From the NCBI GenBank assembly GCA_963662265.2, contig CAXXHA010000008.1:64001-128000 (forward strand): a DNA stretch of 64,000 nt, given 5' to 3'. The position numbers and the translations under genes are program-made. This DNA comes from Spirochaetia bacterium. GTDB lineage: Bacteria; Spirochaetota; Spirochaetia; CADAEX01. The notes beneath the pieces were generated by a model. The model had not been told where the DNA came from, did no database searches, and saw only the letters and a program-made list of their open reading frames with translations. Shown in pieces: positions 1,518-53,481 of this stretch (position 1 is its first letter; every line of letters begins with the position of its first letter).

Positions 1518-1562
1518 TTTTAGTCCTATATTTATTTTTTATTAATATTTTTAATCTTAAAA

Positions 1563-1784: not shown

Positions 1785-1918
1785 ATTTATAGTATTCCTA
1801 TTAAAAAATATTTTTTACAATTGATACTATCATATAGTATTTTTTAGATATTTATATCTTTATTTTGACAATCATATAAATAATATTCTTTGTTTTATCT
1901 AAAAAGCCCTGTAAGGGC

Positions 1919-2054: not shown

Positions 2055-2135
2055 GCCGTTTATTATATATAAATATTCCTACATCTCACTATATAATTCT
2101 TTTTCCCTTTTTTATTACTCCCAATTTATATTCGT

Positions 2136-2600
2136 TTAATGATTCAAAACTATATTTTCATAATAAGATAAAATCTCTTTTTTATTCCAATTTCTTTGTA
2201 TCCATATACTTAAATTCATATGTACTACATGCCATGTTGCTGATACTTTTGTATTTTCAACAACATTTGTCTCTCTCATATGATAGATGGCAATTTTAGA
2301 GGCCATTATTGACATATCAGTAAATGGAAATTCATTTATATTTTCATTTGAACAAGATAAAATACCTCCCATTAACCATTTATACATCCAATATGGAGTT
2401 AATTTATGAAATTCATCAATATCTATATTTGGTTCATATAATTCCCATTTTTTTTCAAAATCTGTTTCAGTTATGGAACTAGATACTTTTTGTGGATAAT
2501 TATCAATATATGATAATGCATTATAATATACGAAAATAGGTAATAAAATTATAAATAGTACTATTATAATAATAACTATACCTAAAATTTTCTTAATCAT
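2136..2600 (-). CDS. Hypothetical protein with N-terminal membrane anchor
   Basis: 154-aa ORF in cassette orientation with a hydrophobic N-terminus. Confidence 0.7.
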   Translation of the reverse strand: MIKKILGIVIIIIVLFIILLPIFVYYNALSYIDNYPQKVSSSITETDFEKKWELYEPNIDIDEFHKLTPYWMYKWLMGGILSCSNENINEFPFTDMSIMASKIAIYHMRETNVVENTKVSATWHVVHMNLSIWIQRNWNKKEILSYYENIVLNH

Positions 2601-3069
2601 TTAGATTACCATGTCTTATTAATCTATTAGTAATTAAAAGTGCAATCATCATAATATATCCAATTATCCATATTGAACTTACCAATTTTATCGTATTTTC
2701 ATTTGCTATTGTAAAATCACTAAATGGCCAAAATATTCTCAAATCTTTATGCATCAAGGAATCTAAAAATAGATGTGATAAAACACCTGCTTCTCCACCT
2801 AATATGTATGAAATTATTGTAACGTCCTTAATTCTTATTTTTTTCATTATTATACCAAATATAATTGATACTGGTAGCATAATTGCGGAACCACCAATTA
2901 TCGTATGGCTGAATCCATGCAATTCGAAGTTACAATCAAAAAAAACAACCAAAAATGGCTGTATATCAATTATTATATTTGATATTACACACATTGGAAT
3001 ATTTATATATTTCTTTAGAATCATCCCAAAGCTTGCATTTTAACCAAAATGTAAAGGTGTTATTGGCAT
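2593..3069 (-). pseudogene. Membrane metal-dependent hydrolase-like protein (YdjM/DUF4184-like) with an in-frame TAA at codon 10
   Basis: ATG 3069 gives MPITPLHFG*, in frame with ORF 2593-3024 (motifs IIDIQP, HGFSHT, SHLFLDSLMH). RBS AGAAGGG lies before 3069. Confidence 0.6.
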
Positions 3070-3139
3070 TCGACCCTTCTTACTTATGAATGTTTTATTA
3101 TATTTCATCTTCTAAAGATGTAGAATCACTTTTTCGTGC

Positions 3140-3250
3140 ACATAACGCCCAGTTGAGCTGCTTCGCAGTACCAATAAAACATACTTCTTTGCTGCTGAAA
3201 TAATCCTGAAAGAAAAAAGTCGCGAAGTCTGCTCCAACTGATTGTTATCT
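3140..3250 (-). repeat. attC site (111 bp)
   Basis: acataac-gcccagttgag...ctccaactgatt-gttatct; same type as 9740-9851. Confidence 0.92.
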
Positions 3251-3259
3251 TTTATATTT

Positions 3260-4315
3260 TTAAAATGGTATATCAATACATTCATCAAATATTTTTTCTA
3301 TTGTAAATTCATCTAATTTTCTCAAGGAATTATAAAGCTTTTGTTTTTTATCAGTTTCGATCTTTTCTAATTTATCCAGATCACCATTTACAACTATTGC
3401 ACGATTACTCTTATTATTAATTAAAAAAGTACAATTTCTATCTAAATTATTTCTACTGTCATGAATTCTAATATTATTTTCTAAATCAATTTCTGAAAAC
3501 ATTGTCATAAAATCATACCAGTTTTCATTTTCTTTTATACTTTGTTTAAATAACTCTATTGAAATTGCATAATTATCTATACTTAATTCTTTTTTAATTG
3601 TAATGAAGAATTGTTTTGCATTATTCTCATTATCTAAATCTAAAATTACTTTATCAGCATCGTCTTTATTAACAGATCTTAATATATTTTTCGTTAAATC
3701 TTCAATTTTTTCATTTATTGCAGAAATTGATGTTAATGCATTTTGAGTTTTTTCGTAAATTTGATATTGACTCCTTTGAACAAGAAAATCATAAAACATA
3801 CCAGACCATTGTTTTCTTAGATAGTTTTTTATTTCATTAGTATACTGAAAACTAAAATATCCATTATTTACTTTTGAAGATCTAACTAAATCTATAAATT
3901 TGAATATATTTATAGCAAAATCTTGTTTTTCAATTGATGGAAAAATAATTTGATTAGCATTTTCTTTATTTTTTATATATATCCGATGATCTTCATTTAC
4001 TTCGTTTTTGACAAATGTAAATACAGGAATATTCAATTCTTTAGCGGCAATATATTCAGCATTGACAATAGATTTATTAATATCTGCAATATAATTACCA
4101 CCAAATCGTCCTCCGATGATTAATATAAATAGCTGACAATTTTGTATTTCTTTTATACATGCATCATGAGTATGTAAATCAGGATGATAAAATACATCGC
4201 CTTTTTCACTAAGAATTGTATCAAATCCGAATGATTTAACAAATTCAATAAGATTATCTCTTACATCTGCTAAATCATAACATGTTGAACTTATAAAAAC
4301 TTTTGGGCAAGCCAT
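3260..4315 (-). CDS. DUF4062-domain protein
   Basis: N-terminal KVFISSTCYDL...C...I..C.LFILIIGGRFG...SIVNAEY signature; AGGAG RBS. Confidence 0.85.
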   Translation of the reverse strand: MACPKVFISSTCYDLADVRDNLIEFVKSFGFDTILSEKGDVFYHPDLHTHDACIKEIQNCQLFILIIGGRFGGNYIADINKSIVNAEYIAAKELNIPVFTFVKNEVNEDHRIYIKNKENANQIIFPSIEKQDFAINIFKFIDLVRSSKVNNGYFSFQYTNEIKNYLRKQWSGMFYDFLVQRSQYQIYEKTQNALTSISAINEKIEDLTKNILRSVNKDDADKVILDLDNENNAKQFFITIKKELSIDNYAISIELFKQSIKENENWYDFMTMFSEIDLENNIRIHDSRNNLDRNCTFLINNKSNRAIVVNGDLDKLEKIETDKKQKLYNSLRKLDEFTIEKIFDECIDIPF

Positions 4316-4449
4316 TTTATACTCCTAATATTTTTAATATTATACTTATTTTAGTTAGATATTAATATTTCTACAACTTTTATATTAATAATATTCATTT
4401 ATGTTAACATAAATACTTATCATTCAAAGTTATTGGACATTTTGAATAA

Positions 4450-4557
4450 AGATAACGCCAAGTTGAGCTGTTTGACTGATCCCGAAGGGTTGGCGCGTGT
4501 TCTTGCAAAAGCAAGAACCGTGACAAAAGTCAAATCTGCTCCAACTTTTTGTTATCC
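4450..4557 (-). repeat. attC site (108 bp)
   Basis: agataac-gccaagttgag...ctccaacttttt-gttatcc. Confidence 0.92.
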
Positions 4558-4665
4558 GTTTCATCATTCCATGATAATATCCATAGACTTAATTAATTTT
4601 ATAAAATAATTTTTTCAATAAACATAATGTTTTTCAGGGTGGAGCTTTTATTATTAATCCTTAAA

Positions 4666-5160
4666 TTACTGAATCTCCTTCCCCATCCAAACAACACTAA
4701 AATATCTTCCAAATTTTTTTCCAATATTTTTAAATATTCCATATTCTATAAATCCATTCTTTTTATGGAATTTTATACTATTATTATTTTCTGAACAAAT
4801 ACTTGCTAATATTTTTTTTATTCCCATTTTTTCAGCTTCAGTTTCAAGTTTATTTAAAGCTTGTTTTCCAATTCCTTTACCTGTATATTCATGATGTATA
4901 AAATACATAATTTCAGCAACTTCGGAAAAAGTAGATAAAGATATATGAGGTTTAAGCATACAAAATCCCAGAATTTTATTTTTATCATCTTTAATTGCAA
5001 ACCCAGGATATTTTTTAGTTACTTCAAGAAAATTTAGGAAATGATCTTTTTTAACAGTATTTTCTCTATATGCAGCTGTTGTTTCTTTTATATAATAATT
5101 AAATATTTCCATTACATCATTTTGATGTTCAATACTTAATTTTTCAAATTTACATTCCAT
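4666..5160 (-). CDS. GNAT N-acetyltransferase (phosphinothricin/YncA-like)
   Basis: IFNYYI..TTA, GKGIG acetyl-CoA motif, N..SIKFH.K.GF...G.KFGR. Confidence 0.9.
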   Translation of the reverse strand: MECKFEKLSIEHQNDVMEIFNYYIKETTAAYRENTVKKDHFLNFLEVTKKYPGFAIKDDKNKILGFCMLKPHISLSTFSEVAEIMYFIHHEYTGKGIGKQALNKLETEAEKMGIKKILASICSENNNSIKFHKKNGFIEYGIFKNIGKKFGRYFSVVWMGKEIQ

Positions 5161-5493
5161 ATTTACTTCTCCACAAATATTATTCTTTTCAATATTTATT
5201 ATTTTTGATTTATAAAATATTTTTCATTAATTCTTAAAGTTGATTTTTTATCATGATGCAAAGTATATAATTTGATAGGTGTAAAATTATAATAATCCTC
5301 TAATAATGACTTATTGGATTTATTAAATATCATATTTTTTCCCATATATCTTATATTATCATTTTTTTCAATATTTCTCTATTTTCTTAATCTCGAAGCT
5401 TGTTAAATATTCTTTTTTATTTCAAAGATCATGGATTTCATAATTTTTACGGTTTATTTTATCAGTTTTGCTATATTTACCGCCCGAAGGGCC

Positions 5494-5686
5494 GGATAAC
5501 ACCAAGTTGAGCTGCACCGGTGGTTCCTGAGCGAAGCGAAGGATTGGCATGTGTTTTTGCATTCATTTCTTTGCTTTGAAAGCAAATCTGGAAGTAGTAA
5601 ATAACTGCTGCAATTCTTTTATAATTCTACTTTTTTCCTGCAAAAACCATGACAAAACCGGGGTCTGCTCCAACTTTTTGTTATAT
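5494..5686 (-). repeat. attC site, long class (193 bp)
   Basis: ggataac-accaagttgag...cctgagcgaagcgaagg...ctccaacttttt-gttatat. Confidence 0.88.
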
Positions 5687-6115
5687 TCTAAATCCTCGCA
5701 AGGTCAAATGGCAAGTTCTTTTTCCCCATTTTCCAACCCGAAGATATTCTGCAGATCTTCAATATTTCTATTCAGAACTGCCAGGCGATCATTTCGGCAG
5801 GGCTCACCGCCCAGACTTTTGCACCCCAATCGTTCGGCGATCCTCGGAAATAATCAAGCCCTTAAATTCCTACCCTATATTGGACGGCATCGGCGCTGGC
5901 CATTTCGCCAAAAAGAAGATCAAGAAAACAAACGCTTTTCAAAATTGAAAGCAATATGTGCGAAATGCACCCGCCCAAAATTTCTTTCCCTAAATTGGCA
6001 GGCTCTGGAGGATGGCGGGCCTCAAAATGCTGCAAGCCATTTCCCAAAAAATCCTTAATTTTTATACGTCTACCAGTTTATTGGCAGTTTTTACGGTTTC
6101 CGCTAACTTGTGTGA
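5687..6115 (-). other. Gene-less cassette, family A (copy A1, 429 bp); candidate structured ncRNA/ssDNA
   Basis: Bounded by gttatat/atataac and GC-richer than the coding cassettes. Near-identical to 13047-13475, but no ORF is conserved between the copies. Confidence 0.8.
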
Positions 6116-8738: not shown

Positions 8739-9620
8739 TCAAAAATAAGATATTATTCTTCTTTCTGATGTTATTAATTCAAATATTCTATCATTTTTTC
8801 CCTTATGCATAGTTTTTTTAATAATCCAATTCTTTTTATTGTCAAATGTATATTTATATTTTATTTCATCAGTAACTTTATTATCTTTATATGTTATCTT
8901 AAATCTTATATTTCCATTCTTATATTCTTTTTTACTTTTTAATTCATCATTTATATATTCTTCAGTTGATTTAATTCTTCCTTTTCCATCATAATTATTG
9001 ATAACTACCCAACTACTAACAGCTTCATTAGAAATAATATTAATTTGTCGGATTAAGTCTTTTCCTTCATATTCATTTTCTACTATTATTTTTGTTTTAC
9101 TTTCTGGACTTAAAGTCTTTTGCTTTTTTCTTATAATGAGTTCACCATCGTATTCATAATTTATTAAAGTAATATGCTCTTCTTCCCCATTTATTGTTTC
9201 TTGTTTTATTAAATTTCCAAATTCATCGTATTCAAATGTAGATTCTGAAACCGGGATATCATCTTTTTCAAATATTGTCTTACTATATACGATTTGATCA
9301 TTTTTTTTAGTATTTACAACTATATACTTTCCAAATATTATATCATAACATGATATTTCAATAATATCATTGTTGTACTTACGTTCTTCAGAATAAACAA
9401 TTTCATCATTCAGACTAAATCGTTTATATAAGATTCTTTCCCCATTATTATTTTTTTCTTCAATTTCTCTTTTATACTCATTCCCTAAAATATCACTTTC
9501 AAATATTTCGGTACTCTGTATAATGAAATCGTTTTTTTTATCTGTATTTTCTAGTACACACCCACAAACTATAATTTTCATTATTAGTAGTAGTACTTTT
9601 ACTTCATGTTTTACTTTCAT
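8739..9620 (-). CDS. Hypothetical exported protein with YD/RHS-like beta-hairpin repeats
   Basis: Repeated FEYDEFGNLI, YEYDGELI, NYDGKGRI and YTFDNKKNWI segments; hydrophobic N-terminus with Cys. Confidence 0.7.
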   Translation of the reverse strand: MKVKHEVKVLLLIMKIIVCGCVLENTDKKNDFIIQSTEIFESDILGNEYKREIEEKNNNGERILYKRFSLNDEIVYSEERKYNNDIIEISCYDIIFGKYIVVNTKKNDQIVYSKTIFEKDDIPVSESTFEYDEFGNLIKQETINGEEEHITLINYEYDGELIIRKKQKTLSPESKTKIIVENEYEGKDLIRQINIISNEAVSSWVVINNYDGKGRIKSTEEYINDELKSKKEYKNGNIRFKITYKDNKVTDEIKYKYTFDNKKNWIIKKTMHKGKNDRIFELITSERRIISYF

Positions 9621-11760: not shown

Positions 11761-12735
11761 TTATTCTCCTATTTCTATATCACTTTTTAATATTTCAATA
11801 TTTTCAATATTTTTATATCTTAAAAATGATTTAAGAGAATGTTCTGCTTTTTTTGAGTTTAATGAGTTACCATAAATTATTTGGTTTATTGGTAGAGGCA
11901 TTTTTGTCGCTTCTTTCTTATTTTCTTTATAAAATGCTAATTTTTGATATGGAATCAGTAAATTATTTTTTTCTCTATAATGTATTTCATTGTTCATTTT
12001 TTTGGGAAATGAAATAATTCTCCATTCCTTTTCTTCTTCGAATTCTTTCTTCTTTAATAATGGTAATATATATACTATTAAGTCTTTTAAATATTCAATA
12101 ATTATCCGAAATTTTAAATTTTCATCAGAAGTAATATTATTTTCAGGAAAATCATTATCTAATTCAATAACTGTATTTTTAAAAATTGTTCTTACAAAGT
12201 CTTTCTGACTTTTATAGTCATAAAGTACTGGTTTTGGTAATAAACATGGGTAAAATTTTGAATCATCTTTTATATCTTCCCAATAAGGTCCAATTATCAA
12301 TTCCTCTGTATTATTAATACTTATACAATATCCTTTTCCATTTTGACCATATTCTCTCCATTGTCCTAACAAATTATTATGTTCACAAAACGATGTTATA
12401 TATATTTCATTATCTAGAATATTATTATCTGTATATTCTTCTTCCATTATAATTAAAAACATGTTTATTGCTGTTTTTACTGTGCTATTTTCATCGAATT
12501 CATCTTCCAATATATCTTTTATAATTTTTAAACCATATTTAATTTCATTAGGATCATTTAAATAACTATAATGAGTAGCCCATAAAGTATTTTCTTCTAA
12601 AATTCCTTTTAATCCATATGCACTTGTATAATGATATAACTTAGTAATTTTATTATTTTTAAAATATTTATTTAATTCATCAGTTATATTATCTAAAAAA
12701 AATAAATATTCTTTTTTATTCTTTTCATTTTCCAC
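11761..12735 (-). CDS. DUF2971-domain protein
   Basis: LYHYTS..GL.GIL....LWAT...LNDPNE, SFC....L.QWREYG..G.G, K...F.EEKEWR. Confidence 0.85.
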   Translation of the reverse strand: MENEKNKKEYLFFLDNITDELNKYFKNNKITKLYHYTSAYGLKGILEENTLWATHYSYLNDPNEIKYGLKIIKDILEDEFDENSTVKTAINMFLIIMEEEYTDNNILDNEIYITSFCEHNNLLGQWREYGQNGKGYCISINNTEELIIGPYWEDIKDDSKFYPCLLPKPVLYDYKSQKDFVRTIFKNTVIELDNDFPENNITSDENLKFRIIIEYLKDLIVYILPLLKKKEFEEEKEWRIISFPKKMNNEIHYREKNNLLIPYQKLAFYKENKKEATKMPLPINQIIYGNSLNSKKAEHSLKSFLRYKNIENIEILKSDIEIGE

Positions 12736-27076: not shown

Positions 27077-28078
27077 ATGAACAAAATCACAATAAGAAAA
27101 CCTGATGACATGCATATACACCTGAGGCAGGGTGAAAATATGAAAAGCTATGCACAGGCTGCTGAATCTTATTATGCCAGAGCTCTTATAATGCCAAACA
27201 CTGTTCCCCCTGTAAATTCTGCCTCTTCTCTGATTTCATACAGAAATAAAGTCCAGGAAGCAGCTCCTTCTCTCATCCCCCTGATGGCTTTCAAGCTCTA
27301 CAGGGGGATGGGAAAAGAGGATGTTTACAAACTGAAGGAAGCAGGAGCTGTTGCAGGGAAGCTCTACCCTGCAGGAGCCACAACCAATTCAGAGGACGGA
27401 GTTCGAAACTGGAAAGAAATCAGAGATGCGCTTTCGGCCATGAGTGAAGCAGGAATAATGCTTTCTGTACACGGGGAAAAACCTGAATCTTTTTCACTCG
27501 ACAGGGAAAAGGATTATCTCTCAGAGCTTTATGAAATCATGAATAACTTCCCGGATCTTAAAATTGTGTTTGAACATGTATCATCAAGAGAGGGGGTTAA
27601 AGCTGTTCTTGAGGGGGGGGAGAACCTTTCGGCAACAGTCACACCACACCACCTCCTTTACACACTGGATGATCTCCTGGGGGGAATGCTTAATCCGCAT
27701 TTTTTCTGCAAGCCTGTGGTAAAAACCCCTTCAGACAGGGCTGCTGTTCAGGAGGCAGTATTATCAGGAAACAGTAAATTCTTCTTCGGTTCTGACAGCG
27801 CTCCCCATCCTGAAAATGCAAAATTCGGAAAATCAGGAAGCGCAGGTATTTATATAACACATGCATCTCTTCCGCTTCTTGCATCTTTTTTCGAAAAATC
27901 AGGCTGTATGGATATGCTTGAGAATTTCACTTCCCGGTTCGGAGCGGAATTCTACGGTCTTGAGCTTAACAGGGGAACAATAACGCTTGAGATGTCTCCC
28001 TGGAGTGTACCTGAAATTTCAGGGGGATCTGTACCTTTCATGGCAGGTGAAAATCTTGACTGGAAAATTATAAAATAA
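27077..28078 (+). CDS. pyrC: Dihydroorotase (type II)
   Basis: DDMHIHLR, MPN, KLYPAGATTNS, GSDSAPH. Confidence 0.95.
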   Translation: MNKITIRKPDDMHIHLRQGENMKSYAQAAESYYARALIMPNTVPPVNSASSLISYRNKVQEAAPSLIPLMAFKLYRGMGKEDVYKLKEAGAVAGKLYPAGATTNSEDGVRNWKEIRDALSAMSEAGIMLSVHGEKPESFSLDREKDYLSELYEIMNNFPDLKIVFEHVSSREGVKAVLEGGENLSATVTPHHLLYTLDDLLGGMLNPHFFCKPVVKTPSDRAAVQEAVLSGNSKFFFGSDSAPHPENAKFGKSGSAGIYITHASLPLLASFFEKSGCMDMLENFTSRFGAEFYGLELNRGTITLEMSPWSVPEISGGSVPFMAGENLDWKIIK

Positions 28079-28209
28079 CAGTGGTGAGTATTTTCAGAAA
28101 ATAAAGATTGAATGCCCGGAAATTCCTTAATTCTTATAATTGTTTGCAGTACTTAAACATAATCAGGCATCAGCATGGCATGAATTATCAGGAATATACG
28201 GAGAAAATA

Positions 28210-28719
28210 ATGAAAAAATATCTGGTTTTAATGATAATGATACGGACAGTATCCCTCCTCTATTCGGAAGAGACTGAACTTCTGAAAACAGAGGGGAAAA
28301 GCGATAAAAATGTGAGCCTTGATTCAATTGATAAGAAACTTGAAGGGAAAGCTAAACTGGGTCTTTCTCTGGGCACGGTAACAGGAATCACATTCGGTTT
28401 TCAGGCCACAAGAATTATGGAACTGAATGCAGTTGTCGATATTTTCGACCTGGGCGATTTCGCAGGGGGAATGAGCGTACTTTTTGCATTACTGGACCTT
28501 GAAGCAGGCGATGCAGTATTTCCGGTTACAGCAGGGCCGGCTGTAGTTTTTAAAGCAGGAAACAATGAAAAAACAGATATCCTCGGAATAATCAGAATTG
28601 AATATGATTTTACAGATATTCCCTTGAACCTTTACCTTGAGGGGGGGATTGGGCTTAAGATAATACCTGATATAAAGACTGCCGGAGAAGGTGCACTTGG
28701 AGTCAGGTATATATTCTGA
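28210..28719 (+). CDS. Small outer-membrane beta-barrel-like protein
   Basis: Signal-like N-terminus from ATG 28210, alternating beta pattern, C-terminal RYIF. Confidence 0.6.
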   Translation: MKKYLVLMIMIRTVSLLYSEETELLKTEGKSDKNVSLDSIDKKLEGKAKLGLSLGTVTGITFGFQATRIMELNAVVDIFDLGDFAGGMSVLFALLDLEAGDAVFPVTAGPAVVFKAGNNEKTDILGIIRIEYDFTDIPLNLYLEGGIGLKIIPDIKTAGEGALGVRYIF

Positions 28720-29010
28720 CTCCAGGAATTAAAAAACATAAATCTGCTTGAAATAAGAAGGATTATTTCTAAAAGCGGCAACATGACAGGTTGGGATCTC
28801 TACCTGCCTCTTTCAGTGTTGATAGAATACAGCTGAAAATTAAAGAAAAACACCCTGAAGATCTGCTCTGTAGGGTGTTAATCTAGAAATATCATCTGTC
28901 AGATTCTTTGCCAGACCGCTTATACTGCAAGTAATGACAGGGAATCTGAAGATAACAAATGCGGCCATCTGTCTGTCATGACTGGATGCAGCATTTTTTA
29001 TATATGTATT

Positions 29011-29919
29011 CTAAAGAATTCCCAGTGATTTCTTCAGGGAATTGAGAGTATTTTTCATCAGCATTGTGATTGTCATCGGCCCGACCCCGCCCGGTACAGG
29101 GGTAATGGAACCTGCAATCCCGCTTATTTCATCAAAATCAACATCACCCTTGAGAACAGCAATATTTTTACCTGTTTTTTTACTTATTTTTTCACCAATC
29201 CTGTTGACCCCGACATCTATGACACATGCCCCGGGCTTTACCCATTCAGGCTTTACAAGTCCCGGAACACCGGCAGCAACTATAAGTATATCAGCCCTTC
29301 TGCAGTGAACATCCATCTCTTTTGTTCCTGTGTGAACTACAGTTACTGTTGCATTAGCCCTCTCGCCTTTCTGGAGAAGCATGTTTGCAACCGGTTTGCC
29401 CACAACATTTGACCTGCCGACAACAACAACTTCCGCCCCGTTTGTCTCAACACCTGATCTCTTTATCAGCTCGATAATTCCTGCAGGTGTGCAGGGGGGG
29501 AATATAGCTTCTTTACCGCCTACAATGAGCCTCCCCACATTTACCGGGTGAAATCCGTCAACATCCTTTTCAGGATCAATAGCATAGATGATTTTTTTCT
29601 CATCAATATGCTTCGGCAGGGGAAGCTGGACAAGTACTCCGTTGATTGAATCATCATTGTTATACTTATCAATTTCTGCAAGAAGATCTTTCTCTGAAAC
29701 AGTATCCGGAAGGTTAACCTGAACCTCATGAAACCCGAGACTTTCCGCCGTCTTTATTTTAAGTGTCACATAGGAAACTGATGCGGGATTCTCCCCCACG
29801 AGAATAGTCACAAGTCCGGGGATTTTCCCGTATTTCTCTTTTATTGAATCAGTCTCCTCTTTGATTTCCCTGAGGATTTCTTTTCTGATCTCTGTACCAC
29901 TGATTATTTTAGCTGCCAA
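29011..29919 (-). CDS. folD: Methylenetetrahydrofolate dehydrogenase/cyclohydrolase
   Basis: VQLPLP, KDVDGFHP, PCTP, GRSNVVGKP, TPVPGGVGPMT. Confidence 0.97.
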   Translation of the reverse strand: MAAKIISGTEIRKEILREIKEETDSIKEKYGKIPGLVTILVGENPASVSYVTLKIKTAESLGFHEVQVNLPDTVSEKDLLAEIDKYNNDDSINGVLVQLPLPKHIDEKKIIYAIDPEKDVDGFHPVNVGRLIVGGKEAIFPPCTPAGIIELIKRSGVETNGAEVVVVGRSNVVGKPVANMLLQKGERANATVTVVHTGTKEMDVHCRRADILIVAAGVPGLVKPEWVKPGACVIDVGVNRIGEKISKKTGKNIAVLKGDVDFDEISGIAGSITPVPGGVGPMTITMLMKNTLNSLKKSLGIL

Positions 29920-29997
29920 ATCATCTCCCTGTTTTCATTTCTTTTTATATATTAAAAAAAGCGCCGGATTATATCACGGCGCTATTATAACATGTTT

Positions 29998-30849
29998 TCA
30001 ACCCAGAAGCGCTTTAAGCTCTTCAAGTGTTTCCTTTTTTATGCTGAATGAGTGTTCAGGTCCCGGAAAACTTCCCTCCTTGACCTCTCTGCTGTACATG
30101 GAAAGCGCCTTGACAGATTCTGAATAAATATCTGCATAAACCTTCACAAACTTTGGTGTAAACTTCCTGTACATTCCAAGCATGTCATGATAGACAAGTA
30201 CCTGCCCGTCACACCCTGCGCCTGCTCCTATTCCTATAGTAGGGACAGAAATCTTTTCCGTGATAATTTGTGCAAGCCCTGAAGGAATTGCTTCAAGCAC
30301 TATTGCATATGCACCTGCCTCATCAAGGGCTACAGCATCATCCACCATTTTCTTTGCAGCATCAAGCTTCTTACCCTGTACCTTGTGTCCCCCGAGAAGT
30401 GCTGCTGTCTGGGGAGTTAGCCCTATGTGGCCGCATACCGGGATACCTGCCTTGAATACAGCGCTAACTGTATCGGCATAGTCTGTCCCCCCTTCAAGCT
30501 TGACAGAATCGGCCCTTCCTTTCTGGTAGAGTATGCCTGCATTTTCTATTGCCTGTTCTTTTGAAATATTGTAGCTCATGAAAGGCATATCGCCAATAAC
30601 ATGGGTATCCGGTGCTCCCCTCGTAACAGCCCTGATATGGATAAGCATATCATCCATTGTAACCGGGACTGTATCGCTGTATCCCAGTTCCACCATACCG
30701 AGAGAATCCCCGACAAGAATCATATCTACCCCGGCTTCCTCTGCTATCTGGGCCTGCGGATAGGAATAGGCAGTTACAACAGATATTTTATCTCCCTCTT
30801 TTTTCATGTCTTTAAGATTATTAAGAAGCAGTTTGCTGTTTCCTGACAT
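29998..30849 (-). CDS. panB: 3-methyl-2-oxobutanoate hydroxymethyltransferase
   Basis: TAY, LVGDSLGM, DMPFMSY, VKLEGG, GHIGLTPQ, GIGAG...DGQVLV. Confidence 0.97.
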   Translation of the reverse strand: MSGNSKLLLNNLKDMKKEGDKISVVTAYSYPQAQIAEEAGVDMILVGDSLGMVELGYSDTVPVTMDDMLIHIRAVTRGAPDTHVIGDMPFMSYNISKEQAIENAGILYQKGRADSVKLEGGTDYADTVSAVFKAGIPVCGHIGLTPQTAALLGGHKVQGKKLDAAKKMVDDAVALDEAGAYAIVLEAIPSGLAQIITEKISVPTIGIGAGAGCDGQVLVYHDMLGMYRKFTPKFVKVYADIYSESVKALSMYSREVKEGSFPGPEHSFSIKKETLEELKALLG

Positions 30850-31061
30850 AATTACATCTCCTCATTATTTCAGTCATTCAATTTTCAGGCATTTTACCCA
30901 TCTGATCCATATAACGGAAACCATATCAGATATTACCTGATACATCCGGCAGATCAGACAGCTGAAATATTTCTTCCATATCACACATATATTTAATGCA
31001 TGACAGATTATTCACAGAAATCTTTGTAAATTATTCACTTTTTCTGTAAAATCCAAAAATA

Positions 31062-32318
31062 TTAAAGTATATCGGAAATCACCTTGATTATTTTCTCCGC
31101 AACTTCCTGCTTTGTAGCCATGGGTATCTTTATGTTCAGTCCCTCCCTGGAGAGCAGAATCATCTCGTTTGTGTCTGATTCAAACCCGGCACCGGATTTT
31201 GAAACATCATTGACTGCAATCATATCAGCTGCCGCCTTGTTCATTCTCCAGGATGCATTTTCAACAAGGTCTTTTTCCTCCATATCATGAAGAGCCCTGA
31301 ATGCAAGGAGAAATATATCAGGATACTTTTCCCTGATACTGTCTATAATCTTCGGTGTGGGTTTCAGTTCTATTGTAAGTCTGTCCCTGTTATGGGTTGA
31401 AACCTTCTCAGATGAAGGATTAAGAGCCTGCCAGTCTCCGACAGCTGCAGCCGATGCAAAGAGGTCATATTTTTCCCCTGAAAGCTCGCTGTGGACTGCC
31501 CTGAACATTTTTTCCGCTGTTTCACCGTCAACAACTTTTATTCTTGATGATGGCTTAACTGTTATCTTACCAGCCACAAGCGTGACATCCGCCCCTGCCC
31601 TTAGTGCGGCTTCCGCAATTGCTACCCCCATCTTGCCTGATGAGTTGTTTGATATCACCCTGACAGGATCAAGGTATTCTACAGTCCTTCCCGCTGTCAC
31701 AAGCACCCTCTTGCCTTTAAGCGGCTTGTTTTCAGTCTCGCTGTCCAGTATTTCTATGACTTTTTCAAGTATATCGCTGTTTTCAGGTATTTTAGCCTTA
31801 CCCTCTTCGACACGGGGCATCATGACAGTAATACTGTTTTCTTCAAGCTTTCTGATGTTTTCCTTTACAAAAGGATGCCTGTACATAGGCTCATGCATTG
31901 CAGGGACCACGATAAGAGGTATCCCCTCGCCGAGGCCTGTAGTGACAAATGTTGTCACAGGTGTATCATCTATTCCGCATGCAATTTTTCCCACAGTGTT
32001 GGCTGTTGCAGGAGCTACAAGGATAAGATCTGCCTTTCCCTTGACATTTCCTGCCAGTGAAACATGTTCAACTTTGCCAGTTATTTCAGTTACTGCCTCA
32101 TTTCCTGTCGCCCAGTGCATGAGGTCCGGGTGAATTATACCGCAGGCAGCCCTGCTCATAACAGGATAAACATCTGCCCCGTATCTCATGAGAAGCCTTG
32201 CAATTTCAGATGCTCTCACTGCAGCAACACTCCCGCTTATGCAAAGCACTATTTTCTTTCCGCAAAGATCATCTGACAGAGTGCCTTTTATATCAAGGGA
32301 GGGATGTTTTTCAGTCAT
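31062..32318 (-). CDS. coaBC: Bifunctional PPC decarboxylase / PPC synthetase
   Basis: APATANT, PAMH..M, TAG.T.E.LDPVRVISNNSSGKMG, AAAVGD; archaeal-style N-terminus HPSLDIKGT. Confidence 0.95.
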   Translation of the reverse strand: MTEKHPSLDIKGTLSDDLCGKKIVLCISGSVAAVRASEIARLLMRYGADVYPVMSRAACGIIHPDLMHWATGNEAVTEITGKVEHVSLAGNVKGKADLILVAPATANTVGKIACGIDDTPVTTFVTTGLGEGIPLIVVPAMHEPMYRHPFVKENIRKLEENSITVMMPRVEEGKAKIPENSDILEKVIEILDSETENKPLKGKRVLVTAGRTVEYLDPVRVISNNSSGKMGVAIAEAALRAGADVTLVAGKITVKPSSRIKVVDGETAEKMFRAVHSELSGEKYDLFASAAAVGDWQALNPSSEKVSTHNRDRLTIELKPTPKIIDSIREKYPDIFLLAFRALHDMEEKDLVENASWRMNKAAADMIAVNDVSKSGAGFESDTNEMILLSREGLNIKIPMATKQEVAEKIIKVISDIL

Positions 32319-32384
32319 ATTTCACTCCTATAACATGATAAAACAGTTTTTTATCATTACTTTCCTGACGCTATTATAATACTG

Positions 32385-32643
32385 CTTTCGAGCACTTTCT
32401 CTTCGAGAAAGTCTCTGTCGCTTATTGCAAAACAGGGTTTTGCAATTTTTCGAGCACTTCCTTTCAGGGAGTCTCTGTCGCTGATGATAAAAACTTATCA
32501 TTTCTTTCTTAAACGCTTTCGAGCACTTCCTTCCAGGGAGTCTCTGTCGCTGATGATAAAAACTTATCATTTCTTTCTTAAACGCTTTCGAGCACTTCCT
32601 TTCAGGAAGTCTCTGTCGCTAATGATAAAAACTTATCATTTCC
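32385..32643. repeat. Four-copy tandem repeat (62/69/69-bp period) of double-hairpin units
   Basis: ttcgagcactt...agtctctgtcgct with cgagc at 32389, 32451, 32520 and 32589. Confidence 0.9.
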
Positions 32644-32691
32644 TGTTTTATTATATATTCAGGTTTGTTTTATTCCTTTGCAGCATCAGCC

Positions 32692-33471
32692 TCACACAGT
32701 GTCTGCAAGTTCTTTCACATGTTCAGAAATATGTATAAGCGATGCTTTGAGTACTGCCCGGTTATCATACTGTTTAAGAAGACTCTGGAGTTCTTCCCTG
32801 CTTTTATCTTTCATCTTTCCAATATAGTTGCAGATACATGGCAGAGCACGTGTAATATTGTCAATAATTGAAATATCTGCTTTTCGGGGAGTCCTCGAAA
32901 TGGGATTAAGATCAACAGTTACAACTTTCTTTCCCATTGCAACAAGTGCATCTGTCCTGTCTCCGTCTTCAAGAGGAACAAAGACAAGGTCGGCTTTTAG
33001 TATCCCGTCAGGGTCCACTATTCTCCTGTCACTTGAGAGTTCGGGGATTGTTGCACCCATTTTAAGTCTCTCCTCGGTACCGAGGACCTCATCAGCGCCT
33101 GCCTTCTCAAGGACTTCAAGTATTGCAGCTTCCCGTCCATTTTCCCTGTAAAAAAGGTTTATCTCGAGTTTTGCACCTGAGATTTTTGAAAGCTCAACAA
33201 GTTCTTCGGGGACCAGCTGTGCGACATTGCCGTTAACAGAAATTACAGGACGTTCTGCCAGAAGAAAAGCTGCTGCTGCTGCCTCGCATGCCCTGTCTGC
33301 AAAAGGGGCTGTCTTTTCCCCTATCAGGTAATCAAAAGCCTCGCCCCTTCCCTGGGCAATAAGACCTGCCGGAGCCACAATTTTCTTTTCGCATCCCTTT
33401 ATCAGGTTATGCCTTATCATCATCGCCTTGTAGCGGGGATGATCTTCCGGTATATTAATCTTCACTGACAA
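32692..33471 (-). CDS. 4-phosphopantoate--beta-alanine ligase (archaeal-type phosphopantothenate synthetase, COG1701)
   Basis: IP.DHPRY, GLIAQGRGEAFDYLIGE, PVISVNGN, LEINLFYR, VPLEDGDR, DLNPISRT, DNITRA. Confidence 0.92.
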   Translation of the reverse strand: MSVKINIPEDHPRYKAMMIRHNLIKGCEKKIVAPAGLIAQGRGEAFDYLIGEKTAPFADRACEAAAAAFLLAERPVISVNGNVAQLVPEELVELSKISGAKLEINLFYRENGREAAILEVLEKAGADEVLGTEERLKMGATIPELSSDRRIVDPDGILKADLVFVPLEDGDRTDALVAMGKKVVTVDLNPISRTPRKADISIIDNITRALPCICNYIGKMKDKSREELQSLLKQYDNRAVLKASLIHISEHVKELADTV

Positions 33472-34387
33472 TTCTTACTCCCCCTTTTGCAATATTTGAA
33501 TAAAAAAGCTGAGGTTTAACATCTGAATCAATCTTTTTTATTATTTCAGTATATATTTTCTGCATTTTTCCAAGCTCATCCTTGTCTATAATTGAGAAAG
33601 TACCCTCGCCGAACATAAGCATACTGCTTTTTATTCCCCTGAGGTCAAGTTCATCAAGTATCATTCTGACACTGGATGGAATAATTCCCGTACTTTCAGC
33701 AAATGCTCTCGAGTATTCCATGAATCTCTCAAATTCCGGAGTCTCCTGTATCATGCTGTGGTATTTTTCACCGCTTTTCATAATACTTTCACGGACTTCA
33801 GGGTTGCTTAAAGCCTCGCTTGTGGAATAGGGACCGAAAACTATGAATGCGGCATAAAGCCCTTTCGGATACTTTATTGAAATAGTCTTCCCTATTCCGG
33901 GGGCTCCCGGTTCAACAAGGACTTTGAATCCCCCCATGGTCTCTCCCATGACTGTACCGAGACCTGTCTTGCAGAGGACTTCAGCGACATGCGCTATCTG
34001 GGATACCTTGATTGCGCTCAGCGGATCATTGTAGAGGCGGTTCAGAGCAAATGCAAGGCTCAAGGCGCCTGAACCGCTTGATCCGAAACCTGCGCCCTGG
34101 GGCGTCTCAATATGATGCCTGATATCGACCTGCCTGTACGGGATATCTGCCCAATCATGAAAAAGTTCAACAACTTTCCTGCTGACAGGAGCATCACAGT
34201 TCTTATCACGGTTAATGGAAACAGCAGTCTCTGATATTTTGCTGTTAAACGAAACTGAAGTAAAAGCTCCCTTTTTCAGGGAAAACCCGGATCCCAGAGA
34301 TCCCCTGTAGAGGGGGTCTTCAATCAGATCCTTCATATAAAACAATCCGGTAACGTGACCGGGAGAAAACGCAATAACCTTGTTCAT
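33455..34387 (-). CDS. Pantoate kinase (archaeal-type GHMP kinase, COG1829)
   Basis: AFSPGHVTGLF, GSLGSG, PQGAGFGSSG, AHVAEV..KTGLG, PGAPG; overlaps the PPS gene. Confidence 0.9.
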   Translation of the reverse strand: MNKVIAFSPGHVTGLFYMKDLIEDPLYRGSLGSGFSLKKGAFTSVSFNSKISETAVSINRDKNCDAPVSRKVVELFHDWADIPYRQVDIRHHIETPQGAGFGSSGSGALSLAFALNRLYNDPLSAIKVSQIAHVAEVLCKTGLGTVMGETMGGFKVLVEPGAPGIGKTISIKYPKGLYAAFIVFGPYSTSEALSNPEVRESIMKSGEKYHSMIQETPEFERFMEYSRAFAESTGIIPSSVRMILDELDLRGIKSSMLMFGEGTFSIIDKDELGKMQKIYTEIIKKIDSDVKPQLFYSNIAKGGVRIVSED

Positions 34388-34484
34388 AACACTGAGTATC
34401 TAACATAAGCGTTTTTTTTTCAACACTATACATAAAGGTTATCAACTACTTACAAAAGAATGAGTTTCTGTTATGCTTGGAATA

Positions 34485-35414
34485 ATGAAAACAGCAATAA
34501 TCGGTGCAGGTGCTATAGGAAGTCTTTTCGGATCACTTTTGAAAATAAACAATATTGATGCAGTTTTATTTGACAGGGACCAGGATAAAATAAACTATAT
34601 TAAAAACAACGGGCTTAAGCTGATCTATCCGGGTAACGGAGAAAGCTTCAGGATTTATCCGGAAGCAGAATCTGATATCATGAAAATAAAAGATTTTGAC
34701 TATTATCTCATGTGCGTGAAATCATATTCAACAGAAGCTGCTGCAGCTGAAATCAGTGCAGTATGCAGCAGTAAATCTGTTATTGTTACTTTTCAGAACG
34801 GCATGGGAAATGTAGATATACTGAAAAAATATTTCCCGGAAAGCAGAATTGCTGCAGGTACAACATCGGAGGGGGCATCGTTCAAGTCACCCGGTACTGT
34901 TATATACGGAGGTAAAGGAAAGACCTCTTTTTCAATTATAGATGCAGGTAATGACAATAAAAAGCTCGGGCAGCTCATAACAATGCTGAATAACGGAGGC
35001 ATTGATACCTCCCGGGCAGACAACTACAGGAGGGATATATGGAAAAAGCTTATTGTCAACGCTGCAATAAATCCCTTAACTGCAGTTCTCAGGGTCAAAA
35101 ATATTTCTGTCTCAGAATCCCCCTGTCTCAGGAACCTTGCTGAAATGATAATTTCAGAATCTGTAAAAGCGGCAGAAGCTGACGGGATATTTTTCGATTA
35201 TGAAGAGATAAGAGAAAATGTATTTAATATTGCGGAAAAAACTGCTGAAAACAGGTCTTCGATGCTCCAGGATATAGAAAACAAAAGGAAAACAGAGATT
35301 GACTATATATCGGGAACTGCGGCAGACAGGGCGGAAAAAGCAGGAATAGAAAAATCTGTAAACAGGATAATGCAGAATATAATCAAAGTACTTGAAAACA
35401 GGTACTTCACTTAA
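34485..35414 (+). CDS. panE: Ketopantoate reductase
   Basis: [30 protein letters not shown]....R.TEID. Confidence 0.93.
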
Positions 35415-35440
35415 AAAAATATAATTGTTACAATTCCACC

Positions 35441-36013
35441 ATGAATGAACAACGAGTACAGGAACTTATTAAAGAACTTCTCATCGAAATAGGCGAAGAT
35501 CCTGAAAGGGAAGGACTCCTGACAACACCGGACAGATTTGCAAAAGCATTTTCATTCCTGACTAAGGGATACAACGAAAATATAGAAGATGTCATCAATG
35601 GAGCTGTTTTTACGACAGAAAGCAACAACATGGTGATCCTCAGGGATATTGAGGTTTACAGCCTGTGTGAACATCACATGCTTCCCTTCTACGGGAAATG
35701 CCATATCGGATACATACCTAAAAACAAGCTGCTTGGAGTAAGCAAGCTTGCAAGAATTGTGGAAGTTTATGCAAGAAGGCTCCAGATACAGGAGAGGCTC
35801 ACTGCACAGATCGCAGATGCCATAAAAAATGCCATTGATGTTGAGGGAGTCGGCGTTGTAATGGAATGCAAACACCTCTGCATGATGATGAGGGGTGTTG
35901 AAAAGCAGAATTCCTTCATGACAACATCAACAGTACTCGGAAGTTTTCACAACCAGCTGGCAACAAGGCAGGAATTCATGAATCTTATAGGGATAGGAAG
36001 AACACAGCTCTGA
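35441..36013 (+). CDS. folE: GTP cyclohydrolase I
   Basis: [40 protein letters not shown]. Confidence 0.97.
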
Positions 36014-36215
36014 CAGATATAAATAGCCCTGCAGGCAGACAATCTTAAGCACTGTTCCATGTTCTGATCGGGGAAAAAAAGCAGAAAGATGGTTTTAAAG
36101 AAGTACCTGTAAAACCTCTTTCAAAGGCAGTCTGAATCAAGTAACAAGTCAGATAAATTTAAAACAGCTTTCCTGAAAAGGAAAGCCGTAATATTCCTGA
36201 AAAATATCTGAACTG

Positions 36216-37790
36216 TTATTTCCCCAGCATCAGTTTTGTAAGCTGGAGGAAAAAATATATTTTTCTGTATATTTTCTTTATCTCTTCAGGGAGGTTACCG
36301 GGATATTCCCCCTTCACTACTGAAGGATTGATAATAATCGACATTTTTGTTGTATCTTCAAGATCCGGAAGAAGATCCTTGAGACTGTTTGCTACTTTAA
36401 CAAGATTCCTGTAAGTATCCTGCCCCAGCACAACAGCTCGGTTATTGACATCCATAAGGCATTTCTTTACATCAACCTTGTACTTGGGCTCTGCAGTCAT
36501 TCTCTTCATGAAAGTATTCAGCTTTATCCCCACTTCCTCGTCCGAAGCAAGCGACTGGTCAAAATCAGTGATTTTTTCTGAAAGGGAAACAAGTTCATCC
36601 ATTGTATCGGAGAGTTCCTTGCTGTAATTATTTGACTTCCATTCGACCTTTACTACGAAAAAATTCACGAGTTTCAGGATATCGCTTTTAACAACATCAA
36701 GCATAAATGCCTTGAGATAATTCATGAAATCAACATGGAGATAACCTCCAAGAAGCTTTGTCTTGAATGCTGTGTTGTTGCTTTCAGTGTAATACTTCAT
36801 CCTGCTTATTGCAGTGGTGCCGAATATTTCCTTGAGAAGATTATCCCTCCTGCTGTTCTTTGTTTCTTTTATAACTTTCTGTATAACAAGCTCGGTAGAT
36901 GTTTTCAGTTTATTGAAATACTCCTCAAATATTTCCCCGTCAGGATCGGAAACAACCGGCTTGTAAAAAGGGTCCTTGTTAAGAAGCTTTACAATATAAA
37001 GAAGAACCTGGGATTTTTCTATCGCAGAAACTGCACCAAGGACTTTACCCCACTGCTGTCTGGGAATGAGTTCCTGCTGCTTGAATAACTCGAGAACTGC
37101 GAAGAGTTTTTCCCAGTCAGGATATTTAAGTATCACAGGAAACATTGATATTGTATCAACAATATCCTCTGTGATATATTCACAGGTTATAGGTGTAAAA
37201 GAAGGTTTATACTTGAAATCCATTTCACCGAAATTTGAATCAAATTTCCTGAGTAGAAAGTAATAATCAAATTTTATAAACTGGAGAAATGCAAGATACT
37301 GTCTGTAGAGAAGATGAACATTCTGTTTCTGCTCATCAGTTATGGATTTCAAGAGAACATCAAGCTCTTTTTTTACAACTTTTATAACAGCAGGATTTTC
37401 CTTTATCCTTTTTTCCACATTATCCTTATGAAGCCTGTTAATAAGTTCTTTCTGTTTCTCGCTCAGCTGGCTGTCGATAAAGAGGTATTTGAGAGCAGGG
37501 GATTCTTCCTGGTTTGCCAGAAAACTTGCAGGAACTGCCACAGTCTTGTAGATCTGGTAATAGAACTGTGCAAGCTGGGGAAGCGCCTCTTCTGTCTTTA
37601 CATTGAGAAATTTATATTTCTGTTTTCTGAGTATTTTCTGAATATCCTTCAGAAGTCTCCGCTTTTTTGCTTCCGGAGAATTATTAACAAAAAAACTGAG
37701 TATTTTTTCTATAAATGAAAGCGGCTGCTGCTCCTCTGTGCTGAGCTGACTTTCATCAGAATATTCATCCTGCAGCAAATCATTATCCAT
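36216..37790 (-). CDS. Conserved spirochete protein (DUF5312-like)
   Basis: Long helical ORF with FDYYFLLRKFD. Start moved to ATG 37790 because the track TTG at 37826 is a TTGACA box. Confidence 0.7.
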   Translation of the reverse strand: MDNDLLQDEYSDESQLSTEEQQPLSFIEKILSFFVNNSPEAKKRRLLKDIQKILRKQKYKFLNVKTEEALPQLAQFYYQIYKTVAVPASFLANQEESPALKYLFIDSQLSEKQKELINRLHKDNVEKRIKENPAVIKVVKKELDVLLKSITDEQKQNVHLLYRQYLAFLQFIKFDYYFLLRKFDSNFGEMDFKYKPSFTPITCEYITEDIVDTISMFPVILKYPDWEKLFAVLELFKQQELIPRQQWGKVLGAVSAIEKSQVLLYIVKLLNKDPFYKPVVSDPDGEIFEEYFNKLKTSTELVIQKVIKETKNSRRDNLLKEIFGTTAISRMKYYTESNNTAFKTKLLGGYLHVDFMNYLKAFMLDVVKSDILKLVNFFVVKVEWKSNNYSKELSDTMDELVSLSEKITDFDQSLASDEEVGIKLNTFMKRMTAEPKYKVDVKKCLMDVNNRAVVLGQDTYRNLVKVANSLKDLLPDLEDTTKMSIIINPSVVKGEYPGNLPEEIKKIYRKIYFFLQLTKLMLGK

Positions 37791-52574: not shown

Positions 52575-52881
52575 CACTTTCCTCCGCATTTTTTACCTTT
52601 CTCAGGTTTTTAATTTTATATACTCATAAGTACTCTTCTTTTATATCCAATGCTTCAAAATTCAATTATTATTTTGTTTTATTTCCCTGATAGCTATAAT
52701 TTTTATTATTAATAAAAATTACCCAGGACATCAGACAATTGTTCTTAAAACGATATCTTAAAATGAAAGATCATATTTATAAATCTTTTGTTATAATAGA
52801 CTTAATTAATTTAATAACACTTTGACAAAAAAAAATATAGAATGTACTCTTTCTTTATATTTAATATTAATTGAGGTTAAA

Positions 52882-53481
52882 ATGAAAAATAAATTACTGC
52901 TTTTTTCAATTGTTCTGTTTAATATTTTTGCATTAAACAGCTGTATGATAACACCAAAATATCATATTACTGATAGTTACAAAGTTCAAGAAAATGAAAA
53001 CGATGGTATCAGAATAAAATGTACATATCTTAATCGTGAAGACATTATTAAACGTCATGGAACAAAACATAATCCATTTCTGGCTCCTTACCGAGTAATG
53101 ACACCTCAACCTGTTATTATTTTCGAGCTTGAAATTACAAATCTTGAAGAAGGGGTTATAAAACTAGACCAGAGAAAAATAGATTTTTTTTATAATGACA
53201 AAAATTATACTCCTATGAGCAGATTAAAAATGAGAATGAAAATTGAAGACGAAGTAACAAAAGGATCTGAGAGGTTACGACAGGAAAGAATAGTAAAACA
53301 ATATATGTTTAATGATATAGAAAAAATCAAGGGAAATCAAACCGTAACTAAATATATAATTTATATGAGAAATCTTAAAGACCGGGGAGAAAGTGAATTA
53401 GTAATTCCAATTTATACAATCGATGGTTTAGAAGCAGCTGATTTCAGTTTTTTTTATAACTTTACAACAAAAAATAGGTAA
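52882..53481 (+). CDS. Hypothetical lipoprotein
   Basis: ATG 52882 with GAGG RBS, lipobox LNSC; TTGACA-17-TACTCT upstream. Confidence 0.7.
   Translation: MKNKLLLFSIVLFNIFALNSCMITPKYHITDSYKVQENENDGIRIKCTYLNREDIIKRHGTKHNPFLAPYRVMTPQPVIIFELEITNLEEGVIKLDQRKIDFFYNDKNYTPMSRLKMRMKIEDEVTKGSERLRQERIVKQYMFNDIEKIKGNQTVTKYIIYMRNLKDRGESELVIPIYTIDGLEAADFSFFYNFTTKNR

Follow-up and report, generated by a model that had tools for sequence, protein, structure and literature searches.

A pantoate kinase and phosphopantothenate synthetase gene pair of archaeal type in a conserved coenzyme A gene cluster of Spirochaetia

Gene content and order of the locus

This study was concerned with two overlapping genes in a stretch of 64,000 nucleotides from a Spirochaetia bacterium (assembly GCA_963662265.2, contig CAXXHA010000008.1, positions 64,001 to 128,000), which is called the window throughout. 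The genes encode homologues of pantoate kinase (PoK) and of phosphopantothenate synthetase (PPS; 4-phosphopantoate--beta-alanine ligase). They had been reported in a preliminary description made from the sequence of the window, and both open reading frames (ORFs) were recovered together with all of the motifs quoted there: AFSPGHVTG, PQGAGFGSSG and AHVAEV..KTGLG in the PoK translation, and GRGEAFDYLIGE, SVNGN and VPLEDGDR in the PPS translation. The genes overlap by 17 nt, with the PoK stop codon at 33455-33457 and the PPS start codon TTG at 33471. Translation of PPS is probably coupled to that of PoK through this overlap and a Shine-Dalgarno-like run within the end of PoK.

The pair lies in a cluster with panB, coaBC and panE, as was also claimed, and all of these neighbours score above their curated cut-offs (Table 1). 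The conserved order of the cluster is folE<panE<|>PoK>PPS>coaBC>panB>folD. This seven-gene order was pieced together from overlapping loci of three genera of one family (designated f1), namely the genus of the window (g1) and genera g2 and g4, and is complete in three Spirochaetia loci from metagenome-assembled genomes (MAGs; loci L043-L045). The folD product would supply or interconvert methylene-tetrahydrofolate for PanB. A search of positions 28000-36500 with Rfam gave two matches only, both at chance level and outside the locus, and a scan for promoters and terminators was uninformative (13 and 7 sites, compared with 8.3±2.8 and 4.2±2.5 in shuffled sequences).

Table 1. Positions of the genes and sequence features of the cluster within the window.
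Feature	Position	Strand	Evidence and remarks
PoK homologue, GHMP-fold kinase, 310 aa	33455..34387	-	First gene of the operon; family, PDB and motif evidence
PPS homologue (4-phosphopantoate--beta-alanine ligase), 259 aa	32692..33471	-	TTG start
Shine-Dalgarno-like run, GGGGGAG	33478..33484	-	6 nt 5' of the PPS start, within the end of PoK; sequence inspection
coaBC, bifunctional phosphopantothenoylcysteine synthetase/decarboxylase (PPCS/PPCDC), uses 4'-phosphopantothenate	31062..32318	-	TIGR00521, 372 bits (cut-off 219.7)
panB, ketopantoate hydroxymethyltransferase	29998..30849	-	TIGR00222, 332 bits (cut-off 207.6)
folD	29011..29919	-	NF010765, 525 bits (cut-off 501); syntenic across the family
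panE, ketopantoate reductase	34473..35414	+	TIGR00745, 254 bits (cut-off 141); divergent from PoK, 85-nt spacer
folE, GTP cyclohydrolase I	35441..36013	+	TIGR00063, 248 bits (cut-off 181.6); syntenic with the cluster
Tandem repeat, 69-bp unit x2.8	32448..32642	.	Inside the 373-nt PPS-coaBC spacer; one copy of a dispersed repeat family

Identification of the PPS and PoK homologues

The PPS homologue was matched by Pfam family PF02006 (PPS_PS) over profile positions 2-175 of 176, with an E value of 5.8e-70 and 234.9 bits against a gathering score of 26.4. The subfamily model NF010324 gave 352 bits (cut-off 227), and the archaeal equivalog model NF041123 gave 300.0 bits, exactly at its cut-off of 300; the homologue from genome G010, which belongs to a sister genus, scored 299.1 bits with this model. 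The protein also matches the solved PPS of Thermococcus kodakarensis (3wdk) over its full length (residues 5-257, E 2.2e-78) and structure 4mb0 (E 1.3e-75), and it keeps all 37 columns that are invariant across 94 aligned PPS sequences. The database copy of the window protein has 243 residues and is thus shorter than the 259-residue ORF. Because P8, H11, P12 and R13 of the N-terminal part are conserved, a longer form is favoured, and the alignment shows the probable start to be either the TTG of the 259-residue form or a GTG 6 nt downstream, not the start of the 243-residue form.

The PoK homologue is a GHMP kinase by its match to PF00288 (GHMP_kinases_N; 37.3 bits, threshold 22.3), and the PxGxGxGSS loop is present as PQGAGFGSSG. 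Its top matches in NCBIfam are two pantoate-kinase models, NF041122 and NF040725, and the only PDB sequence that it matches at E<=0.01 is the pantoate kinase of T. kodakarensis (6jbc; E 1.6e-37, residues 5-281). Best hits to other GHMP kinases, which the preliminary description had named as a sign of a wrong assignment, were not found. Seven residues of the T. kodakarensis enzyme reportedly serve in catalysis or pantoate binding: Ser28, Ser104, His131, Glu134, Asp143, Arg155 and Thr186. Five of the seven are kept in the window protein when the numbering is mapped by eye from the 6jbc alignment, and an alignment of 76 PoK sequences shows no variation at S30, S104, H133 and T189 and very little at E136. 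The window protein differs from the T. kodakarensis enzyme at the other two, with Thr for Asp143 (a change shared by 18 of 50 archaeal sequences) and Leu for Arg155.

One result counts against this assignment. The PoK homologue falls far below the NCBIfam pantoate-kinase cut-offs (139.2 bits against 500 and 136.1 bits against 380, respectively, for models built on narrow archaeal groups). In addition, NCBI names the spirochaete homologues merely 'GHMP kinase'. It could be supposed from this that the protein is a different kinase, such as a homoserine or mevalonate kinase, with no role in coenzyme A (CoA) synthesis. However, the next family in NCBIfam, homoserine kinase, reaches 27 bits against the 139 and 136 bits of the pantoate-kinase models, and the only PDB match is PoK. 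Also, the gene overlaps PPS and adjoins coaBC in every genome examined, an adjacency of PoK and PPS in this order is common to many archaeal loci, and in the tree the protein groups with archaeal PoK genes that adjoin PPS. A different kinase is thus highly improbable.

The rest of the CoA pathway in the genome

The genome that contains the window (G000) is a draft of 3.77 Mb in 41 contigs, with 90.6% completeness and an estimated contamination of 2.26%. As the preliminary description stated, the window itself holds neither panC nor a pantothenate kinase gene. In the whole genome, searches for panC, for type I and type II pantothenate kinases and for PanD gave no match. panC (PF02569) was also unmatched in the 19 other genomes of family f1, two of which belong to the window's genus and are assembled in 1 and 3 contigs; the same search matched 9 of 14 reference genomes used as a control. 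The absence of coaX, however, does not extend beyond the window. An intact gene for a type III pantothenate kinase, coaX, lies on contig 1 (C1:86423-87034; NF009855, 286.5 bits, cut-off 233; PF03309, 213 bits), and coaX is present in both same-genus genomes (G001 and G002) as well. The proposal that the archaeal pair had replaced the bacterial route therefore holds only in part: panC was found in none of the 20 genomes of the family, but the bacterial coaX persists in the window's genome and in both of its congeners. The genes for the last steps of CoA synthesis are present as coaD (C39:85524-85982, 192 bits) and coaE (C18:27088-27612, 101 bits).

Distribution of the pair in the phylum and the family

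Of 401 Spirochaetota genomes sampled evenly across the phylum, seven gave a match to PPS and nine to the PoK homologue, namely the same seven and two genomes of genus g3, a sister genus in f1. The PPS search identified all four archaeal controls and none of the ten bacterial controls. Closer relatives were analyzed as a set of 41 genomes, made up of the 20 genomes of f1 (the window's genome included) and 21 other families of the class. Within f1, PPS was found in 11 genomes, panB in the identical 11, panC in none and the PoK homologue in 19. coaX was identified in three of the 20, which are exactly the three genomes of the window's genus. For the 21 other families the corresponding numbers were two with both PPS and the PoK homologue, five with panC and 13 with coaX. 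The pair is inherited vertically within the family, and the within-family trees of both PoK and PPS follow the genera. Six pairs of PPS-containing genomes gave ratios of nonsynonymous to synonymous substitution rates (dN/dS) of 0.06-0.10 for PoK.

A separate observation concerns seven genomes, each from a different other family (G020, G022, G027, G032, G034, G039 and G040), in which panB is present and both panC and PPS are unmatched. Three of these have a type II pantothenate kinase-like gene, and in G027 panB adjoins panF.

Continuity of the assembly and base composition

A draft in 41 contigs with some estimated contamination raises the question of whether archaeal DNA was joined to, or binned with, a bacterial contig. 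The weak place is the spacer between PPS and coaBC, where no Logan contig spans the repeat at 32413-32592. Short-read contigs end there because the tandem repeat belongs to a dispersed family, which has 36 matches in the same genome, at a depth of about 13x. In the same-genus locus L022 the two genes are only ~30 nt apart, compared with 373 nt in the window. PPS, PoK and panE (32592-35500) were found on single contigs in sequencing runs of two studies, with 0 and 17 differences from the window, and panB and coaBC (29900-32413) were likewise found on single contigs in runs of both. The best-matching run may be the window's own sample, and the contigs of the second study differ from the window at 17-21 positions.

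Other evidence also argues against a chimera or contamination. The two same-genus assemblies (1 and 3 contigs) and members of two other genera share the gene order of the window, and the PoK and PPS trees mirror the genus structure of f1. The composition of the two genes agrees with that of their neighbours, as the preliminary description had noted for codon style: the G+C fraction of PoK and PPS is 0.44-0.45 and that of third codon positions 0.39-0.43, compared with 0.39±0.06 and 0.35±0.09 for 41 ORFs of the window, and their codon usage lies within the spread of these ORFs. A chimera has a negligible probability, and we regard it as excluded because the synteny recurs across genera and contigs of two studies are intact over PPS, PoK and panE. 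Other parts of the window do deviate in composition. Positions 1-6000 and the ORFs at 3260-4315, 8739-9620, 11761-12735 and 52822-53481 have 21-29% G+C, against ~39% for the window, and deviant codon usage; they may be recently acquired islands.

Phylogeny and origin of the pair

Scanning the GTDB species genomes with a pattern identified at least 579 confirmed relatives of PPS, of which the best 80 were examined. These comprised 72 archaeal sequences from many phyla, six from Spirochaetota, one from Cloacimonadota and one from Candidatus Poribacteria. Trees of PoK and PPS with their archaeal homologues were then calculated, from which loci L043-L045 were excluded as redundant. The PoK tree (73 sequences) placed 22 of 23 spirochaete sequences in one clade, with a support of 95 in the Shimodaira-Hasegawa-like approximate likelihood ratio test (SH-aLRT). 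In the concatenated tree of PoK and PPS (65 sequences, 561 columns), all 15 spirochaete sequences, from five families, formed one clade (99), and this clade lies inside a cluster (98) with nine Bathyarchaeota, eight Nitrososphaerota and one Thermoplasmata MAG. A more careful PPS tree was calculated from a subset of 47 of the 94 sequences. It recovered f1 (100/99) and placed Poribacteria with Methanosarcinales and Nanoarchaeia (99/96). Bacterial PPS formed a single clade in none of 200 bootstrap trees, and the approximately unbiased (AU) test rejected a single clade for the 13 bacterial PPS sequences (log-likelihood difference 71.8, p 0.0006).

We read these trees as one old transfer from an archaeon of the Thaumarchaeota-Aigarchaeota-Crenarchaeota-Korarchaeota (TACK) type to Spirochaetia, which would have been followed by vertical descent and losses. 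The spirochaete acquisition is read as probably independent of the transfer to Poribacteria. The transfer would be an old one because three genera of f1 share the seven-gene order and because the spirochaete clade of five families is nested among archaea. An old archaeal origin had been proposed in the preliminary description; its age is supported by synteny and the nested clade, and its direction is inferred from nesting and rarity.

Several properties of the trees weigh against this reading. First, the concatenated tree was the product of a quick search (LG+G4), with SH-aLRT as its only support and five near-duplicate sequences dropped. Secondly, the group used for the AU test was chosen after the tree was seen. 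Third, the backbone of the trees of PPS alone is weak: the spirochaete cluster has a support of 85 or 74/86, and it also takes in one Bathyarchaeota bin and one Cloacimonadota sequence. The PPS of this bin (L085) groups with that of Sediminispirochaeta (92/85), and the Cloacimonadota gene (L048, Candidatus Celaenobacter), which adjoins panE, panB and coaBC, is placed near the spirochaete cluster. These two may be traces of additional transfers, either between bacteria or back into archaea. Lastly, the trees are unrooted, and the direction of the transfer rests on nesting and phyletic rarity.

The missing root, and the grouping of L085 with Sediminispirochaeta if it reflects a transfer back to archaea, would also suit a pair that was ancestral in bacteria or that moved from spirochaetes to archaea. 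However, PPS is rare in the Spirochaetota sampled, archaea of many phyla account for 72 of the best 80 of the at least 579 PPS relatives, and the spirochaete clade is nested inside a single archaeal sub-cluster. An ancestral bacterial pair or a transfer in the opposite direction is thus very improbable.

Proposed pathway

The locus most likely makes 4'-phosphopantothenate in the PoK/PPS order, to which we assign a probability of about 0.8. The gene identities, their order, their distribution and their tree positions were observed as described above, and we infer the enzyme activities from them. The cluster would be a working, vertically inherited operon leading from 2-oxoisovalerate to 4'-phosphopantetheine, with archaeal chemistry at its two middle steps. 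PanB and PanE would produce pantoate, the PoK homologue would phosphorylate it, and PPS would join beta-alanine to the resulting 4-phosphopantoate. The adjacent CoaBC would consume the 4'-phosphopantothenate formed, and the bacterial CoaD and CoaE, encoded elsewhere, would complete CoA. The retained CoaX most likely salvages or recycles free pantothenate. The genome would thus be a hybrid, with a de novo branch of archaeal type and a bacterial salvage kinase, and the PoK-PPS pair would have been gained once, from a TACK-type archaeon, by an ancestor within the class Spirochaetia; the sequences closest to it come from Bathyarchaeota and Nitrososphaerota.

Three sets of observations weigh against synthesis in the PoK/PPS order. 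First, both proteins of f1 carry substitutions at otherwise conserved positions. Leu157 of PoK is found in 17 of 17 f1 sequences, whereas 50 of 59 others have Arg, and this is the only PoK column in which f1 is set apart from a consensus of at least 80% elsewhere. L157 is taken here, from the by-eye mapping, to be the equivalent of Arg155 of T. kodakarensis PoK, which is said to take part in pantoate recognition. In PPS, a Ser and a His of the T. kodakarensis enzyme are replaced by Ala16 and Gln40 of the window protein: all 11 f1 sequences have this Ala, against Ser in 82 of the 83 other sequences, and all 11 have this Gln, against His in 74 of the 83. From these family-specific changes, the substrate handling of the two proteins may differ. 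Secondly, no source of beta-alanine was found in the genome in searches for PanD and the PF00282 decarboxylase; other routes were not searched. Third, the PoK homologue has a use that needs neither pantoate nor PPS, because eight of the nine genomes of genus g3 keep it without PPS or panB.

Genus g3 and a possible pantothenate kinase

Genus g3 is represented by nine genomes of 1.2-1.8 Mb. Only one of them, G010, keeps PoK, PPS and coaBC in this order together with panB. The other eight (G004, G007, G012, G014, G016, G017, G018 and G019) keep the PoK homologue, whereas PPS, panB and panC were unmatched in them and none of the pantothenate kinase types (I, II and III) was found above its cut-off. 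A PPS protein query gave no match in any of the five PPS-less genomes in which it was used. Among the PPS-less loci (L032-L034 and L130-L133), the order was PoK>coaBC>folD in all four that were examined, with PPS and panB cleanly gone. The downstream genes are retained, with coaBC and coaD in five of five and coaE in four of five genomes. Comparisons among PoK genes of these genomes, of which six of the eight were analyzed, gave dN/dS values of 0.03-0.05 where the synonymous divergence dS is below 1.5. Purifying selection on PoK in the PPS-less genomes is thus at least as strong as in the genomes with PPS, where the values are 0.06-0.10. In addition, panF, the gene of a pantothenate symporter (TIGR02119, cut-off 328 bits), was identified in 7 of the 41 relatives, six of which are PPS-less g3 genomes and one of which belongs to an unrelated family. 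panF was not found above the cut-off in any of the 11 f1 genomes with PPS, or in G004 and G019 of g3. In G007 no kinase gene adjoins panF.

These results suggest that g3 switched to pantothenate import and that its PoK homologue phosphorylates pantothenate. By extension, the PoK homologue of f1 as a whole could be a pantothenate kinase of the GHMP fold, which would make it the fourth kind and one not recognised so far, with or without activity as a pantoate kinase. In a strong form of this alternative, the two steps would run as in bacteria: the PPS homologue would act first, as a pantothenate synthetase, and the PoK homologue would follow as a pantothenate kinase. In a weak form, PoK would be dual-specific and PPS unchanged. 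The PoK of the window itself may be dual-specific, and the Arg to Leu change in PoK and the Ser to Ala and His to Gln changes in PPS may mark such a shift.

We give the alternative somewhat short of an even chance. It draws on the eight g3 genomes that have PoK and no PPS, panB, panC or pantothenate kinase above cut-off, on the presence of panF in six of these eight against none of the 11 family genomes with PPS, on the retention of coaBC, coaD and mostly coaE alongside selection on PoK, and on the family-wide substitutions. Also, T. kodakarensis PoK reportedly has a weak pantothenate kinase side activity, with a Vmax about 7-fold below that with pantoate. However, the window's genome has a complete PoK/PPS route and CoaX for pantothenate, and hence has no need of PoK in a pantothenate kinase role. 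The g3 genomes are a single lineage rather than independent cases, an unrecognised kinase may be encoded elsewhere in them, and two of the eight are without panF above its cut-off. The Arg to Leu change alone, considered as a mark of a new PoK substrate, was weakened as evidence by the 9 of 59 PoK sequences outside f1 in which Arg is also missing, each of them beside a PPS. Lastly, the strong form conflicts with the biochemistry of T. kodakarensis PPS, which is said to have no pantothenate synthetase activity. Synthesis of 4'-phosphopantothenate by PoK and then PPS is preferred for the window.

Comparison with known systems

The closest characterized counterparts are the T. kodakarensis proteins PoK (TK2141; 6jbc) and PPS (TK1686; 3wdk), which are matched at full length and belong, by family, to the same folds, GHMP and PPS_PS. 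Unlike in T. kodakarensis, the host of the window is bacterial, the downstream CoaD and CoaE are bacterial, and CoaX coexists with the pair. Compared with the classical route through PanC and CoaX or CoaA, the starting materials (pantoate, beta-alanine and 2 ATP) and the product (4'-phosphopantothenate) are the same, and CoaX is shared. However, phosphorylation comes before ligation in the PoK/PPS route and after it in the classical one, the enzyme folds are unrelated and panC was not found.

In bacteria, PoK and PPS have been described in the sponge-associated Candidatus Poribacteria (Entoporibacteria) by Thomes & Lescure in 2020 (PMC7883664). As in the spirochaete, PoK and PPS are of archaeal type, PanC is lacking, and CoaBC, phosphopantetheine adenylyltransferase (PPAT) and dephospho-CoA kinase (DPCK) are bacterial. 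Several differences were noted. Poribacteria PPS groups with Methanosarcinales and Nanoarchaeia whereas spirochaete PPS groups with Bathyarchaeota and Asgard sequences, which indicates separate transfers. A classical panE is present in the spirochaete but none was found in Poribacteria (PMC7883664). The one Poribacteria locus examined has no PoK within 4 kb of PPS, whereas the spirochaete genes overlap. A type III pantothenate kinase coexists with the pair in the window's genus, and according to PMC7883664 the coexistence of both routes was previously undescribed. A mirror image of this mixing across domains is provided by Picrophilus torridus, an archaeon with a bacterial-like pantothenate kinase (PMC6650551, PMC7883664); the direction there is the opposite, and no PoK or PPS is involved.

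The preliminary description had considered that the pair might already be both widespread and described in bacteria. Described it is, in Poribacteria and in the naming of spirochaete homologues as 'pantoate kinase' and '4-phosphopantoate--beta-alanine ligase' by the Joint Genome Institute (JGI), but it is not widespread, with PPS in so few of the Spirochaetota sampled. A literature search found no paper that ties the pair to spirochaetes. In the pantoate-kinase literature, no paper to 2019 concerned bacteria, judged by titles and abstracts, and since 2020 bacteria were treated only in PMC7883664, which was also the only paper found on GHMP, pantothenate kinase and pantoate together. A paper on termite spirochaetes (PMC13067680) mentions neither pantothenate nor pantoate. 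Thus, the spirochaete locus is not the first bacterial PoK/PPS system, and the coexistence with CoaX is its particular twist.

Significance

The division between pantothenate synthetase with pantothenate kinase on one side and PoK with PPS on the other has been treated as a marker that separates bacteria and eukaryotes from archaea, with one published bacterial exception. The spirochaete locus would be a second case, acquired independently of the first and much earlier, in a genome of cultivable size and in a tidy seven-gene cluster. It would also represent a combination that was undescribed according to PMC7883664, in which an archaeal de novo branch is found together with a bacterial pantothenate kinase. 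Metabolic reconstructions based on panC would wrongly call these spirochaetes pantothenate auxotrophs, because NCBI labels most of their kinases just 'GHMP kinase'. In addition, genus g3 can serve as a natural experiment for the question of whether the role of a pantothenate kinase can pass to a pantoate kinase. If it has passed in this way, the g3 PoK homologue would be the only enzyme that passes PanF-imported pantothenate to CoaBC, and it would be a new type of enzyme for a reaction that serves as a drug target in other bacteria.

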